The notes: generated by a model not told the origin, from the letters alone. 64,000 nt of DNA from Candidatus Spongiisociaceae bacterium (GCA_965219685.1 CBDCOH010000002.1:3968001-4032000); one strand, 5' to 3'. Positions 32,951-40,679 are shown, counted from the stretch's first letter. Translations and numbers: made by a program.

Positions 32951-33235
32951 CTAGCAACTAGCGAGGAACTCGACCTCGCGGCTCTCCAGCAGGGGCCGGA
33001 GTTGCTTTACCGCTACTTCGTCGAAGTGGTCTGCTGCGATGTGGGCATCGACGGCGGCGCGGTCGGTGTACTGCTCGACGAGGACGAACAGGCGAGGATT
33101 GTCGATACCCCGGTAGACGTCGAAGGCGATGCATCCCGGTTCGGTGAGCACCATCGGTACGTAGTCGCGCAGGCCTTCGGCCACCTTCTCCTCGTTGCCC
33201 TCTGCCGCTACCCACCGGGCCAGGATGGTCACCAT
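32951..33235 (-). CDS. ABM-family (putative quinol) monooxygenase
   Basis: EPGCIAFDV, FVLVEQY, AVDAH...HF. Confidence 0.93.
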   Translation of the reverse strand: MVTILARWVAAEGNEEKVAEGLRDYVPMVLTEPGCIAFDVYRGIDNPRLFVLVEQYTDRAAVDAHIAADHFDEVAVKQLRPLLESREVEFLASC

Positions 33236-33290
33236 GGTCTATTCCTTTCGGTCATGTGTTCTTGCTTGATCTGACGGGACGGGCCGCGAG

Positions 33291-33617
33291 TCACATCGAT
33301 GCGAACCCGATCGACCTGAGTTGCTTCCGTCCTTCCTCCGAAACCTGGTCAGGACACCAAGGCGGGTCGAACACCCAGCTGACATCGAAGTCCTCGAGCA
33401 CGCCCCGGCCGACCAACTCGTTCCGCATCTGGTCCTCGATGACCGAGGTCAGGGGGCAGAAGGGGTTGGTGAGGGTGACGTCCAGGGATGCATGCGAGCC
33501 GTCGACCTGCACCTCGCGAACGAAACCGAGGTCGACGATGTTGACGCCGAGATCCGGATCGATAACCTTCCGTAGCGACTCGATGATCTGGGTCTCGATG
33601 CCCATGGGAGTGTCCAT
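33291..33617 (-). CDS. DUF59/SufT-PaaD metal-sulfur cluster assembly factor
   Basis: VIDPDLGVNIVDLGFV, TLTNPFCPL, FDPPW. Confidence 0.95.
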   Translation of the reverse strand: MDTPMGIETQIIESLRKVIDPDLGVNIVDLGFVREVQVDGSHASLDVTLTNPFCPLTSVIEDQMRNELVGRGVLEDFDVSWVFDPPWCPDQVSEEGRKQLRSIGFASM

Positions 33618-33621
33618 CACA

Positions 33622-34020
33622 TCACCTTCCTTCGGTCGTTCTGTCGTCGTTGGTGAGGCTCGGCCAGGTGATCACTCGGAGCTGTATCTCGACCCGGGTG
33701 GTCCTGGTGGTGATCCAGTCGGCTATGCCGTGGGCCATCCGGCGGAGTCGGGTTACCACGTCTCCGTCACCTACGGTCCAGGGTCCGACCACCATCTCGT
33801 GGCTTCGGATCCCGAAGCGGGCTGCCTCCGCGATCCCCTCCTCGAGTACCCGTGCGAGCGGCGCCGAAGTCGTCCCGGCCCTGAACTTCAGGGCACGGTG
33901 AGCCTCGTCGGCGGGTATACCGTCGAGACGCGAAAGGATACGCCTCGCCTCGTCCTGGTCGATACGCACGTTGGTCTTGCAGGCCGTGACCGTTGGTTCC
34001 GGGATCCGCGCCCTGCTCAT
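33622..34020 (-). CDS. Divergent ribosomal protein uL22 paralogue
   Basis: Colinear with uL22: A...VRI....AR.I...L.G....EA...LKF......PLARVL....A.A....M.V....VGDG....RLRRMAHG.A..I..RTTRVEI.L; ATGA-coupled to the reductase. Confidence 0.82.
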   Translation of the reverse strand: MSRARIPEPTVTACKTNVRIDQDEARRILSRLDGIPADEAHRALKFRAGTTSAPLARVLEEGIAEAARFGIRSHEMVVGPWTVGDGDVVTRLRRMAHGIADWITTRTTRVEIQLRVITWPSLTNDDRTTEGR

Positions 34021-38745: not shown

Positions 38746-39210
38746 TCAGTCGACTTCCATGTGGCCGAGTTGGCGGTAGATCGAGGCGCTGTTCCAGTAG
38801 GCGGTCAGGCTCTCGATCTTGCCACCGTCATTGACATCGAAAACGAACGCGTGGGGTTCCCAGTACTTCATCCCCTTCGGGGCGATCGGTCCCCATGCCT
38901 TTTCCTGGCAGCCGCCGATGCTCACCACCACGGCGACCTTTCCGTCCTCGGAGGCGGTGATGGAGTGGACCTCGTTGGACAGGTCCGGGAAGGAGTTGAT
39001 AAGTCCCTCCCACATGGGCCGACCCAGCGTGGCCACCTTGCCGTCGCCCCTGATGACCCGTTGCTTGGTCCAGATCTCGAATGGGACGTACGAGAAGTCG
39101 GCGTTGTCTGTGCATAGGTCGACCATCGCCAGCGTGTCGTGGCGGCGGTAGGCGTCGAAGAAGGCCTCCACCGTGGTGGTGGGATCGGCCTTCGTAGCAG
39201 TAGTTGTCAC
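38746..39210 (-). CDS. SnoaL/NTF2-like protein
   Basis: VEAFFDAYRRHD, SFPDL, FVFDV..GKI....AYWN; GTG start after AAGGAG. Confidence 0.9.
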   Translation of the reverse strand: MTTTATKADPTTTVEAFFDAYRRHDTLAMVDLCTDNADFSYVPFEIWTKQRVIRGDGKVATLGRPMWEGLINSFPDLSNEVHSITASEDGKVAVVVSIGGCQEKAWGPIAPKGMKYWEPHAFVFDVNDGGKIESLTAYWNSASIYRQLGHMEVD

Positions 39211-39224
39211 GATTTCTCTCCTTC

Positions 39225-39644
39225 CTAAACGATCGACACCGCGTCGAGGCGCTTGACCGCCAGCCTGCGGTAGAGAACGTTCTGATCCCAGAATCCCCGG
39301 ATCGAGGAAATACGTCCGTCGGATGTGCCCAGTAGCCACACCTGATCGAGGTCGATGTGTTTCTCCTGGTTGACGACACCCAGGTACTCGGCCGCCTGGG
39401 TTCCCTCCATCTTCATCTCGGTCACCGCGGTTCCGTCGGTTCCGATGAAGTGGTTCTTGGTGGTCAGCAGCAGATCCGGGAAGGCAGTGACCGTGGCTGC
39501 GAAGAAGCCCCTGGCCTCGTCCTTGCCTCCGTCGACGTTGGCCGGGAGCACGTCGATGGTCGCGTCATCGGCGACCAGGTCCATCGCGCCGTCCACGTCA
39601 CCGGCCCGGATCGCATCCCAGAAGTCAGCAGCTGTGTCGGACAT
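39225..39644 (-). CDS. SnoaL/NTF2-like protein (ester cyclase family)
   Basis: FWDAIRAGDVD, AFPDL, MEGT, DGRI....FWD. Confidence 0.9.
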   Translation of the reverse strand: MSDTAADFWDAIRAGDVDGAMDLVADDATIDVLPANVDGGKDEARGFFAATVTAFPDLLLTTKNHFIGTDGTAVTEMKMEGTQAAEYLGVVNQEKHIDLDQVWLLGTSDGRISSIRGFWDQNVLYRRLAVKRLDAVSIV

Positions 39645-39659
39645 CGGTATCACCACCCG

Positions 39660-40679
39660 TCACAGTACATCGAGGCTCTTGAGAACCGCGTCGGCCACCG
39701 CGTCGGCTGAACCCGGGTTCTGGGCGGTGATCAGGTTGCGGTCCACCACCACATGGGATGCCCAGGCGTTGCGCCCGTCGTCGAACACCGCTCCGGCGTT
39801 GCGCAGGGCGCTCTCCAGGTACCAGGAGAGACCTTGCTGACCGGGCCGGGTCTGGTCCTCCTCCTCGTCGGTGAAGGACGTCACCCGGTAGCCGTCGAAC
39901 AGCCACTGGCCGTCCATGTTGGCGGGTGCGGAAAGCAGGAAGGCAGGGCCGTGGCACACCGAGGCTATGGCGGCCTGCTTCTCGTGGAGGATGCCTATCA
40001 CCCGGGTCACGTCGGGGTTGTCGGCCATGTCCACCATGGGTCCGTGGCCACCCGGTACGAACACCGCGTCGAACTCGGCGATCTCCTCGTCCGTCATGGC
40101 CGAGAGGTTGGCCGGCGAGACGAAGTCGGGGAGCGCGTCGAGGGCGTCCTTGACACGCTGCGACTCGGCGCCGCTGTCTGCGATCACCTCGGAAAGGGCC
40201 GCCTCGAGCTCGGTCCGCGTGACAGATCCGGGGAGGTCCTGGGTCTCGAGTTCGTCGAGGAACTGGGTGTCGTTCCGCCAGGAGACGGAGGCGGCGCTCG
40301 AGATGAGCTTGCGGGCCTCGATCGGGCTCAGGCCGGCTTCCTTGAGCCGGTTGAACACCCGGAGCGCGGAGATCATGCCCAACTCCGTCAGGTGGTGGAG
40401 GGTCAGGCGGATGTCGTCCACGTCATGGGCGAAGGTCCGGGTGATGCTGTTGAGGAAGTCCTCGTCGTCATCCGGATAGTGGAAGATCTCCTCGAGCCCG
40501 TACGGGTCGGCGTAGGGGGAGCGGCCGTCCGGCGTGGCGACCACCACATCCACCCCCGCCTCGATGAAGCGCTCGTAGGGAGTGAGCGCCTCGTCGGCGA
40601 AGTAACCGGTCTCGTAGTCGGATCCGTCCGCGAGCTGCATCTCCCGCGCGCTCGACACTAGGAACAACAATCGTGGCAT
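39660..40679 (-). CDS. DJ-1/PfpI (Hsp31-like) protein with a ~100-aa insertion
   Basis: TGYFADEALTP, VPGGHGPMVD, ASVCHGP, VTSFTDEEE, LITAQNPGS. Confidence 0.94.
   Translation of the reverse strand: MPRLLFLVSSAREMQLADGSDYETGYFADEALTPYERFIEAGVDVVVATPDGRSPYADPYGLEEIFHYPDDDEDFLNSITRTFAHDVDDIRLTLHHLTELGMISALRVFNRLKEAGLSPIEARKLISSAASVSWRNDTQFLDELETQDLPGSVTRTELEAALSEVIADSGAESQRVKDALDALPDFVSPANLSAMTDEEIAEFDAVFVPGGHGPMVDMADNPDVTRVIGILHEKQAAIASVCHGPAFLLSAPANMDGQWLFDGYRVTSFTDEEEDQTRPGQQGLSWYLESALRNAGAVFDDGRNAWASHVVVDRNLITAQNPGSADAVADAVLKSLDVL

Follow-up and report, generated by a model that had tools for sequence, protein, structure and literature searches.

A four-component di-iron monooxygenase operon with conserved DJ-1 and SnoaL genes in a Candidatus Spongiisociaceae bacterium

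The soluble di-iron monooxygenases, or SDIMOs, have an important place in hydrocarbon cycling, bioremediation and biocatalysis. The abstract and section 3.1 of Yang, Kertesz and Coleman 2025 (PMC11825192) present those clades that exist as uncharacterised sequences only as the main knowledge gap of the field. The operon described here lies at positions 32951-40679 of a 64,000-nucleotide stretch of DNA (the window, from whose first letter positions are counted) of a Candidatus Spongiisociaceae bacterium, an actinobacterium associated with sponges (GCA_965219685.1, CBDCOH010000002.1:3968001-4032000). It comprises 12 open reading frames (ORFs), all on the minus strand and with high third-position GC, each of which scores above the Pfam cut-off for its family. 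In order of transcription, these encode a long DJ-1-like protein, two SnoaL-like proteins, a hydroxylase alpha subunit (A), a TmoB-type gamma subunit (B), an effector (D), a beta subunit (E), a Rieske ferredoxin (C), a reductase, an L22-like protein, a DUF59 protein and an ABM-domain protein. The junctions between them measure 3, 11, 13, -4, -20, -4, 30, 1, -4, 1 and 55 nt, with 10 of the 11 at 30 nt or less, and because they are so short the layout is that of a single unit. An earlier note, made from the sequence of the window, had described 12 co-oriented genes of these families, their overlaps and mostly short gaps, and the order A-B-D-E-C-reductase in place of tmoABCDEF; all of this is borne out. 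A scan of positions 32600-41400 for promoters and terminators returned no promoter-like site and three terminator-like sites, all on the plus strand, against 3.1 expected by chance.

The complete hydroxylase set of alpha, beta, TmoB-type gamma, MmoB/DmpM effector and Rieske ferredoxin is present. The alpha subunit (37224..38732; 502 amino acids; Phenol_Hydrox, 238.6 bits) is TmoA/TouA-like and is followed by the TmoB-like gamma subunit (36952..37227; TmoB, 93.2 bits), whose start at 37227 gives a 4-nt overlap with A. The MmoB/DmpM effector, or coupling, protein (36636..36971; MmoB_DmpM, 76.4 bits) and the TmoE-like beta subunit (35614..36639; Phenol_Hydrox, 227.5 bits) come next, so that the TmoC-like Rieske [2Fe-2S] ferredoxin (35263..35583; Rieske, 67 bits) is positioned after beta and not after gamma; in tblastn comparisons, the ferredoxins in canonical loci share 40-50% identity with it. 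The reductase (34017..35261; Pyr_redox_2, 206.1 bits; Reductase_C, 84 bits) is a ferredoxin reductase of the FAD/NAD(P)H type with the glutathione-reductase (GR) fold, resembling BphA4 and HcaD. Its best NCBIfam matches, HcaD (300.7 bits) and AndAa (297.7 bits), both short of the equivalog cut-offs, are ferredoxin-NAD+ reductases of Rieske dioxygenase systems. Three genes precede this set, namely those for the long DJ-1/Hsp31-like protein (39660..40679; 339 amino acids; DJ-1_PfpI, 58.2 bits), SnoaL-like protein 1 (SnoaL-1; 39225..39656; 143 amino acids with a conserved basic C-terminal tail; SnoaL, 54.8 bits) and SnoaL-like protein 2 (SnoaL-2; 38746..39210; 154 amino acids; SnoaL_2, 41.3 bits, and SnoaL, 31.2 bits). 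In NCBIfam, no family is matched by the alpha, gamma or effector proteins, and every match of the other operon proteins falls below its cut-off.

The association of these three upstream genes with the hydroxylase is a recurrent one. A scan of species-representative genomes, in which the best 80 of 96 relatives were taken, yielded 79 loci with flanks of up to 10 kb. A SnoaL-SnoaL pair lies immediately upstream of A in 60 of the 79, and DJ-1 lies further upstream in 59 of these 60, the exception (L031) being a locus that begins inside SnoaL-1. D and E precede C wherever they are matched in these loci, and the core DJ1-SnoaL-SnoaL-A-B-D-E-C, hereafter the cassette, is retained in the 60 loci across five phyla (Actinomycetota, Chloroflexota, Dormiibacterota, Myxococcota and Pseudomonadota). 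Another 18 loci, in which the alpha is at most 54% identical, have no DJ-1 or SnoaL match; C comes before D and E in those where more than A is matched, and A-B-C-D-E is complete in 14. One further locus (L057) begins inside A, and its upstream side is not scorable. A reverse search, in which an alignment of 27 long DJ-1 proteins was run against metagenome contigs, gave the same picture. Among the best 80 of 426 matches, all 55-88% identical, the genes downstream of DJ-1 where the contig had room for them were SnoaL-1 in 67 of 68, SnoaL-2 in 53 of 53, A in 41 of 42, B in 34 of 34, D and E in 32 of 32 each, and C in 25 of 25. The long DJ-1 is matched at full length in the source genome only among 301 genomes of its phylum; 15 others match its core only, from residue 148 onward. 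In two Acidimicrobiia metagenome-assembled genome (MAG) loci, DJ-1 and SnoaL-1 are fused as one protein of 487 or 488 amino acids (L034:1109-2569 and L052:8073-9536). Because the arrangement recurs in so many genomes it is not a chance juxtaposition, and the strict synteny of the trio with the hydroxylase is close to certain. The conservation of the accessory genes with the alpha, by which the earlier note proposed that its reading be checked, is thereby established on both the genome and the metagenome side. Literature searches returned no paper that joins a toluene monooxygenase (TMO)-type enzyme with SnoaL/NTF2 and DJ-1 genes, nor one that describes such an enzyme in sponge Acidimicrobiia. 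As a separate observation, E comes straight after A in the two loci with the DJ-1/SnoaL-1 fusion, and neither TmoB nor the effector is matched in between.

Phylogeny sets the same loci apart. In a maximum-likelihood tree (LG+G4, quick search) that takes in 85 alphas and has its root at TomA3 of B. vietnamiensis G4, 57 cassette alphas and a long-branched Sporichthyaceae sequence form one clade (Shimodaira-Hasegawa-like approximate likelihood-ratio test, SH-aLRT, 99), and the cassette label maps to the tree as a single change. Six loci with no 400-residue match are absent from the tree, which also contains no true TmoA, TouA or AD45 IsoA. The alpha of Paraburkholderia aromaticivorans BN5 serves as the Tou/Tmo stand-in because it matches TouA at 907.8 bits and TmoA at 855.8 bits. 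XamoA of Xanthobacter Py2, the Mycobacterium ELW1 enzyme and a Xanthobacter dioxanivorans/Bradyrhizobium group fall outside the cassette clade, as do the Rhodococcus WAY2 and R. ruber enzymes and a group that contains BN5. Under this root the alpha of the operon lies within the TMO ingroup, and it is not nested in the proxies of the Tou/Tmo, Xamo, isobutene or dioxane subclades (L081-L088). Nesting within Tmo, Tou or Iso enzymes, which the earlier note named as what would count against a new subgroup, is therefore not seen among the characterised groups included, and the distinct SDIMO subgroup that it suggested finds support in a separate clade with conserved accessory genes. On the alpha sequences, the cassette represents a distinct and widely distributed lineage of the TMO family, and the clade itself is close to certain. 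Closest to the window are MAGs of sponge-associated Acidimicrobiia, whose alphas are 89-97% identical, parts of the window occur in sponge, coral and marine metagenomes, and a fully annotated example of the cassette is carried on a plasmid of Rhodococcus koreensis R85. Within the phylum of the source genome a TMO-type alpha is found in three of 301 evenly sampled genomes, these being the source genome and two with identities of 49-51%. The Sporichthyaceae sequence at the base of the clade comes from a MAG contig of 8322 bases (L054); its alpha is 54% identical, and the contig matches none of DJ-1, SnoaL, B, C, D and E and carries a TmoF-like stretch on the opposite strand.

The alpha subunit aligns end to end with TouA of toluene/o-xylene monooxygenase (ToMO; 555.8 bits) and TmoA of toluene 4-monooxygenase (T4MO; 534.4 bits), against 153.4 bits for phenol hydroxylase and 59.8 bits for soluble methane monooxygenase. 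The positions aligned to TouA E104, E134, H137, E197, E231 and H234, which we take, with the TouA numbering, to be the iron ligands, are identical in this alpha and invariant in all 57 cassette alphas and all 26 canonical alphas compared. Eight further TouA positions, presumably pocket residues (I100, A107, M180, L192, F196, T201, N202 and F205), are likewise identical, while TouA E103, Q141 and F176 are replaced by V, S and I, respectively. The pocket is hydrophobic throughout the 57 cassette and 26 canonical alphas. Given the TouA-like scores, the invariant ligands and the hydrophobic pocket, the alpha is therefore assigned to a TMO-family four-component di-iron hydroxylase with intact ligands and a predicted apolar, ToMO-like pocket, and for the family this assignment is close to certain. 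A four-cysteine site in the C-terminus of the alpha was rejected as a marker of the clade; it is invariant in the cassette clade, yet it is present in 21 of the 26 canonical alphas as well. Among metagenomic relatives of the alpha, many proteins of about 600 amino acids (P0047, P0050, P0057, P0059, P0062, P0069 and others) combine TmoB and Phenol_Hydrox domains as alpha-gamma fusions, and one of 664 amino acids (P0058) combines MmoB_DmpM, YHS and Phenol_Hydrox domains.

The DJ-1 protein of the trio is distinguished by a conserved insert of about 130 amino acids (residues ~65-195) that splits the fold. Its core aligns with known structures over residues 20-64 and 195-337 only (PDB 1u9c, E 1.1e-27; glyoxalase III 4lru, E 3.8e-18); of the structures with a name, Candida glyoxalase III and HchA/Hsp31 come nearest, and unnamed DJ-1 structures also align. 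The motifs at Cys242-His243 (CHG) and Glu272-274 (EEE) are conserved in 54 sequences, and within a set of 27 C242, E273 and E274 are invariant and H243 nearly so. These residues correspond to Cys-His-Glu, which we take to be the catalytic triad of glyoxalase III, and this putative triad is the sole feature of the trio that points to carbonyl chemistry. In the Protein Atlas the protein falls in clusters of its own, labelled 'putative DJ-1/PfpI', with 69 and 781 members.

The structural models of the SnoaL-like proteins (pLDDT 86.2 for SnoaL-1 and 88.1 for SnoaL-2) have a generic SnoaL/NTF2 fold in Foldseek searches, with identities of 13-24% in the structural matches. Their weak sequence matches are to MonBI and MonBII (E 4e-05) and to the epoxide hydrolase 5cxo (E 8.7e-05). 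Limonene epoxide hydrolase (LEH) structures, whose catalytic set in limonene-1,2-epoxide hydrolase is Asp-Arg-Asp, are among the many Foldseek matches, at 16-23% identity. A model of the SnoaL-1/SnoaL-2 complex scores 0.88 against 0.08 for the best control, with at least 81% of contacts shared between runs and a partner pLDDT of at least 86; 58 of 80 solved complexes reach the mark for such scores, as do 2 of 110 mismatched pairs. The two proteins probably form a heterodimer, as modelled, with the reserve that the score may mirror likeness to solved NTF2 dimers, since proteins of this fold commonly dimerise, and that it does not distinguish a heterodimer from homodimers.

Downstream of the reductase lies an L22-like protein (33622..34020; 132 amino acids) that matches Ribosomal_L22 (PF00237) at 50.4 bits, with a cut-off of 28, and aligns over the whole uL22 domain. 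Against rplV_bact (TIGR01044) it scores 41.3 bits, the cut-off being 73.65, and a canonical rplV is found elsewhere in the genome (C2:3521494; 110.8 bits), to which BLASTP aligns it with an E of 2.2. On these comparisons the protein is a very divergent L22-fold paralogue and not a ribosomal protein; the label uL22 given to it earlier stands for the domain and falls for the ribosomal identity. Its best Protein Atlas score of 0.87 serves as a lead only, and a word-based homologue search found 43 proteins, the most distant full-length one about 59% identical. The next gene encodes a DUF59/FeS_assembly_P protein (33291..33620; 109 amino acids; pI 4.2; 64.2 bits), and of 18 genome loci with an L22-like gene, 17 have DUF59 after it. 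On the plasmid of R. koreensis R85 (NZ_CP070611.1; L080:14755-15516) the two are joined in a 253-residue protein, with the L22-like part at 7-110 and DUF59 at 155-251, which is annotated 'iron-sulfur cluster assembly protein'. After the cassette, this plasmid carries glyA and a gene for a succinate-semialdehyde dehydrogenase. The last gene of the operon encodes the ABM-domain protein (32951..33235; 94 amino acids; ABM, 63.6 bits), whose ORF cluster occurs in 15 sources.

The reading we favour, tentatively and with a little less than even confidence in the mechanism as a whole, is that one operon encodes a four-component TMO-family SDIMO together with an accessory trio that serves as its product-processing unit. 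As the protein families suggest, electrons would pass from NAD(P)H to the GR-fold ferredoxin reductase, from there to the Rieske ferredoxin, and on to an (alpha-beta-gamma)2 hydroxylase tuned by the MmoB-type effector. Because the pocket is hydrophobic and ToMO-like, the substrate would most likely be small and apolar (an arene, alkene or methyl ketone, for instance) and would be converted to a reactive oxygenated product. The long DJ-1 and the SnoaL pair, which are specific to this lineage and precede the hydroxylase on a shared transcript, would form a unit dedicated to this product. Within it, the SnoaL pair may open or isomerise an epoxide or alpha-hydroxy-carbonyl, and the Cys-His-Glu DJ-1 may convert the resulting electrophilic carbonyl to a harmless hydroxy-acid or alcohol. 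Such a unit would explain the lack of a thiol-transferase or ring-cleavage gene beside the cassette. The L22-like and DUF59 pair would most likely aid assembly of the iron centres.

Several points weigh against this reading, the ambiguity of the complex score among them. On the side of electron transfer, a GR-type reductase accompanies 18 loci besides this operon and a TmoF-type reductase two cassette loci (L017 and L060, found with queries from three canonical clusters), and most cassette loci have no reductase match within the 10-kb flanks. Since it varies across cassette loci, the reductase type is not a trait of the clade, and the GR-type reductase reported earlier holds for this operon and a subset of the loci. 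The DJ-1 protein scores 87.8 bits against the HchA equivalog NF003168, well below the cut-off of 365, its 130-residue insert is unexplained, and the DJ-1 superfamily also contains amidases, proteases, deglycases and isocyanide hydratases. For the SnoaL proteins, the models are about equally like hydroxylases (SnoaL2 and AclR), cyclases, isomerases, limonene epoxide hydrolases and SalBIII, and because these classes match about equally the fold leaves the reaction undefined. The Pfam limonene-epoxide-hydrolase family is absent among the SnoaL matches at E 0.01, where SnoaL and SnoaL_2 alone are reported. The earlier note had proposed a route by way of an epoxide, ring opening and a dicarbonyl; the DJ-1 triad points towards its carbonyl part, the SnoaL matches include epoxide hydrolases on a par with the other classes, and the route overall stays conjectural.

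The structural matches of the SnoaL proteins bear also on a different, non-catabolic reading, in which the cassette would act on a metabolite that is endogenous or stems from the host, tailoring a secondary metabolite or a signal for instance, with SnoaL and ABM working as they do in the tailoring of aromatic polyketides. The top structural matches of both models are indeed the anthracycline tailoring enzymes SnoaL2, AclR and KstA15, and the ABM domain is named after antibiotic biosynthesis monooxygenases. No polyketide synthase or biosynthetic core gene is found among the recurrent neighbours of the 60 loci, however, the five carrier phyla differ greatly in secondary metabolism, and ABM is limited to the subset of 15 sources noted above, all of which renders tailoring very improbable.

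The likeness of DJ-1 to glyoxalase III speaks for a further reading, in which the cassette would serve a self-contained route for volatile ketones (acetone or other methyl ketones) or small alkenes such as propene. A ketol or epoxide would arise from the hydroxylase, the SnoaL heterodimer would carry out a ketol-aldehyde isomerisation or isomerise or open the epoxide, and the long DJ-1, as a glutathione-independent glyoxalase III, would turn a 2-oxoaldehyde into a 2-hydroxy acid (e.g. lactate) that enters central metabolism. The DJ-1 core is closest to named glyoxalase III enzymes and retains the triad, and the single NCBIfam match of the two SnoaL proteins, below its cut-off, is 'ketosteroid isomerase-related'. 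Conserved downstream catabolic genes are absent from the cassette loci, where the recurrent neighbours are mostly regulators, with an aldehyde dehydrogenase in eight loci, a short-chain dehydrogenase/reductase in 12 and an acyl-CoA synthetase-like gene in four. Relatives within the TMO family oxidise small alkenes, according to section 3.1 of PMC11825192. This case is nevertheless wholly circumstantial; the large aromatic ToMO pocket residues are kept, which is no argument for a small polar substrate, and the conserved genes of the cassette include no dehydrogenase for an alcohol or ketol. We regard the ketone or small-alkene route as quite unlikely.

A further point against a dedicated product-processing unit comes from elsewhere in the genome. 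At the locus itself, dioxygenase, glutathione-transferase and coenzyme M (CoM)-transferase domains are absent from the 12 genes and the 20 flanking ORFs of the window that were scanned, the search for glutathione transferases having covered these alone. Some 155 kb away, at C2:3844453-3846304, the genome encodes two catechol 2,3-dioxygenases in tandem, which score 373.6 and 363.4 bits against TIGR03211, for which the cut-off is 320.2. They lie in an island (C2:3836000-3855000; L101) beside genes for an IclR regulator, an acylating acetaldehyde dehydrogenase-like (DmpF-like) protein and a member of the fumarylacetoacetate (FAA) hydrolase family. The notion that this genome has no aromatic ring cleavage was accordingly rejected, and the absence of a catechol dioxygenase reported in the earlier note holds for the locus and not for the genome. 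The same meta-cleavage-like island also contains a PPDK_N/PEP-utilizers pair and a LigXa-like Rieske oxygenase.

These genes, at their distance of about 155 kb, leave room for a standard aromatic route that works in trans. The operon would then encode a conventional aromatic hydroxylase that converts benzene, toluene or phenols to catechols, to be cut by the distant dioxygenases, while DJ-1, SnoaL and ABM would protect from quinones and reactive by-products or take up a side product. ToMO makes catechols from benzene, and the pocket here is nearly identical to that of ToMO; these facts, together with the two dioxygenases and their DmpF-like and FAA-hydrolase neighbours, make this the rival with most in its favour, though it too is on the unlikely side. 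Homologues of the catechol 2,3-dioxygenases and meta-pathway genes of this genome are matched in none of the related loci, including the 60 cassette loci with their flanks, which speaks against a general link of the cassette with meta-cleavage; the Tou-like BN5 cluster, by contrast, adjoins a 2-hydroxymuconate tautomerase gene. Intradiol (PF00775), LigB-type (PF02900) and homogentisate (PF04209) dioxygenases have no match in the source genome, which is 96.7% complete. Protection pure and simple, moreover, poorly explains a one-to-one synteny in five phyla, the first place in the operon and the fusion of DJ-1 with SnoaL.

The preferred reading of a dedicated product-processing trio can be carried further. 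The long DJ-1 and the SnoaL heterodimer may be one complex that works with the TMO-type hydroxylase, providing a hitherto unrecognised route, independent of thiol cofactors and dioxygenases, in at least five phyla, sponge symbionts included, by which volatile hydrocarbons or ketones would be taken through an epoxide or ketol and an electrophilic carbonyl to a central metabolite, with a recruited L22 paralogue, paired with DUF59 or fused to it, acting as an assembly factor for the iron centres. In this full form we consider the proposal unlikely.

The surroundings of the cassette vary. An orthologous AraC-type regulator accompanies it in 25 loci, where it stands upstream of DJ-1, between E and C, or fused to E; the window has none. 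The fusion joins beta in frame with the regulator (AraC_N and HTH_18) as a protein of about 673-721 amino acids in seven betaproteobacterial loci (L036:12101-14125, and also L037, L038, L040, L043, L048 and L049), five of them titled Paraburkholderia. The MarR gene next to the operon (32293-32853), an LppX-like gene and a major facilitator superfamily gene were dropped as parts of the system, having no match in any related locus. In the upstream flank, positions 44128-47675 encode an Old-Yellow-Enzyme and Pyr_redox_2 protein (678 amino acids) and a FAD_binding_2 protein (477 amino acids), homologues of which adjoin the cassette in two close relatives (L001 and L012) and the metagenome locus L102 and not in other loci. 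The window contains many oxidoreductases, including two DUF4437/Cupin_7 proteins (49164-50396 and 57335-58096) and a F420H2-dependent quinone reductase (24645-25142).

Taken on its sequence evidence, the cassette clade is a real and well-delimited SDIMO subgroup, a variant of the known TMO family whose accessory chemistry is unproven. Its markers, the order A-B-D-E-C with a long DJ-1 and two SnoaL genes upstream, can now be checked in other genomes. The clade occurs widely among bacteria of soil and symbionts of sponges, and its cultured carriers include Rhodococcus koreensis R85, Pseudonocardia endophytica DSM 44969, Amycolatopsis rubida DSM 44637 and Paraburkholderia guartelaensis. Should the trio process the oxygenated product, it would be a new answer to toxic epoxides and carbonyls, for which known members of the family use glutathione, CoM or ring-cleavage dioxygenases. 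An L22-fold protein tied to DUF59 would, in turn, be an unusual recruitment of a ribosomal-protein fold to an oxygenase operon.

Among known systems, the glyoxalase III/Hsp31 proteins (HchA and Candida Glx3) share with the DJ-1 protein its core, the Cys-His nucleophile elbow and the acidic EEE stretch; the protein described here differs by its insert of about 130 residues, a score below the HchA cut-off and the fusion to SnoaL in two loci. The epoxide-opening cyclases MonBI/MonBII and SalBIII and the enzymes SnoaL2 and AclR have the same fold as the SnoaL pair, which consists of tandem paralogues and is modelled as a heterodimer. Compared with these polyether and anthracycline NTF2 enzymes, the context here is a di-iron monooxygenase, and the identities in structural matches are as low as 13-24%. 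PaaABCDE, the phenylacetyl-CoA epoxidase, is likewise encoded by a di-iron operon with a DUF59 protein, PaaD, and its reactive epoxide is handled with no ring-cleavage dioxygenase. A PaaABCDE-type epoxidase was rejected as the identity of the present enzyme because its alpha is TMO-type; in addition, no CoA ligase is conserved with the cassette, and DUF59 is here paired with an L22-fold protein.

Closer relatives are found in XamoABCDEF of Xanthobacter Py2 and the Mycobacterium ELW1 cluster (annotated isoA), which belong to the same six-component family with alpha identities of 47-48%. These two clusters lack DJ-1 and SnoaL and have an aldehyde dehydrogenase after a TmoF-type reductase, and their alphas fall outside the cassette clade. 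Alkene and isoprene monooxygenase systems handle epoxides by CoM or glutathione, the isoprene pathway having adjacent glutathione-transferase and dehydrogenase genes (isoGHIJ); the counterpart gene is absent from this locus.

TMO-type enzymes are group 2 of the older SDIMO scheme and 'group 1' of PMC11825192. Section 3.1 of that paper gives the operon order of all TMOs as alpha, gamma, ferredoxin, coupling protein, beta and reductase, from which the present operon differs in having the ferredoxin after beta, as in the cassette loci. The same section records many TMO sequences from genomes and MAGs, including those of Actinomycetota and Pseudomonadota, with no assigned substrate, and the TMO subgroups A and B, with parts of E, are uncharacterised there (Yang, Kertesz and Coleman 2025; PMC11825192). 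SnoaL, DJ-1, Paraburkholderia and Amycolatopsis do not occur as terms in the running text of PMC11825192, its figures and supplements lying outside this comparison, and the cassette clade may equal one of its unnamed branches or subgroups.

The systems most like the present one remain ToMO (TouABCDEF) and T4MO (TmoABCDEF), with which it shares the alpha, beta and gamma subunits, the MmoB-type effector and the Rieske ferredoxin, as well as identical ligands and most pocket residues. Their order is A-B-C-D-E-F, as it is in the annotated characterised clusters of Xanthobacter Py2, Mycobacterium ELW1 and Rhodococcus WAY2, whereas that of the cassette is A-B-D-E-C; their reductase is of the TmoF type, with FNR and [2Fe-2S] domains, whereas that of this operon has the GR fold. 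The alpha described here belongs to a separate clade, and three extra genes, for a long DJ-1 and two SnoaL proteins, stand upstream of it.

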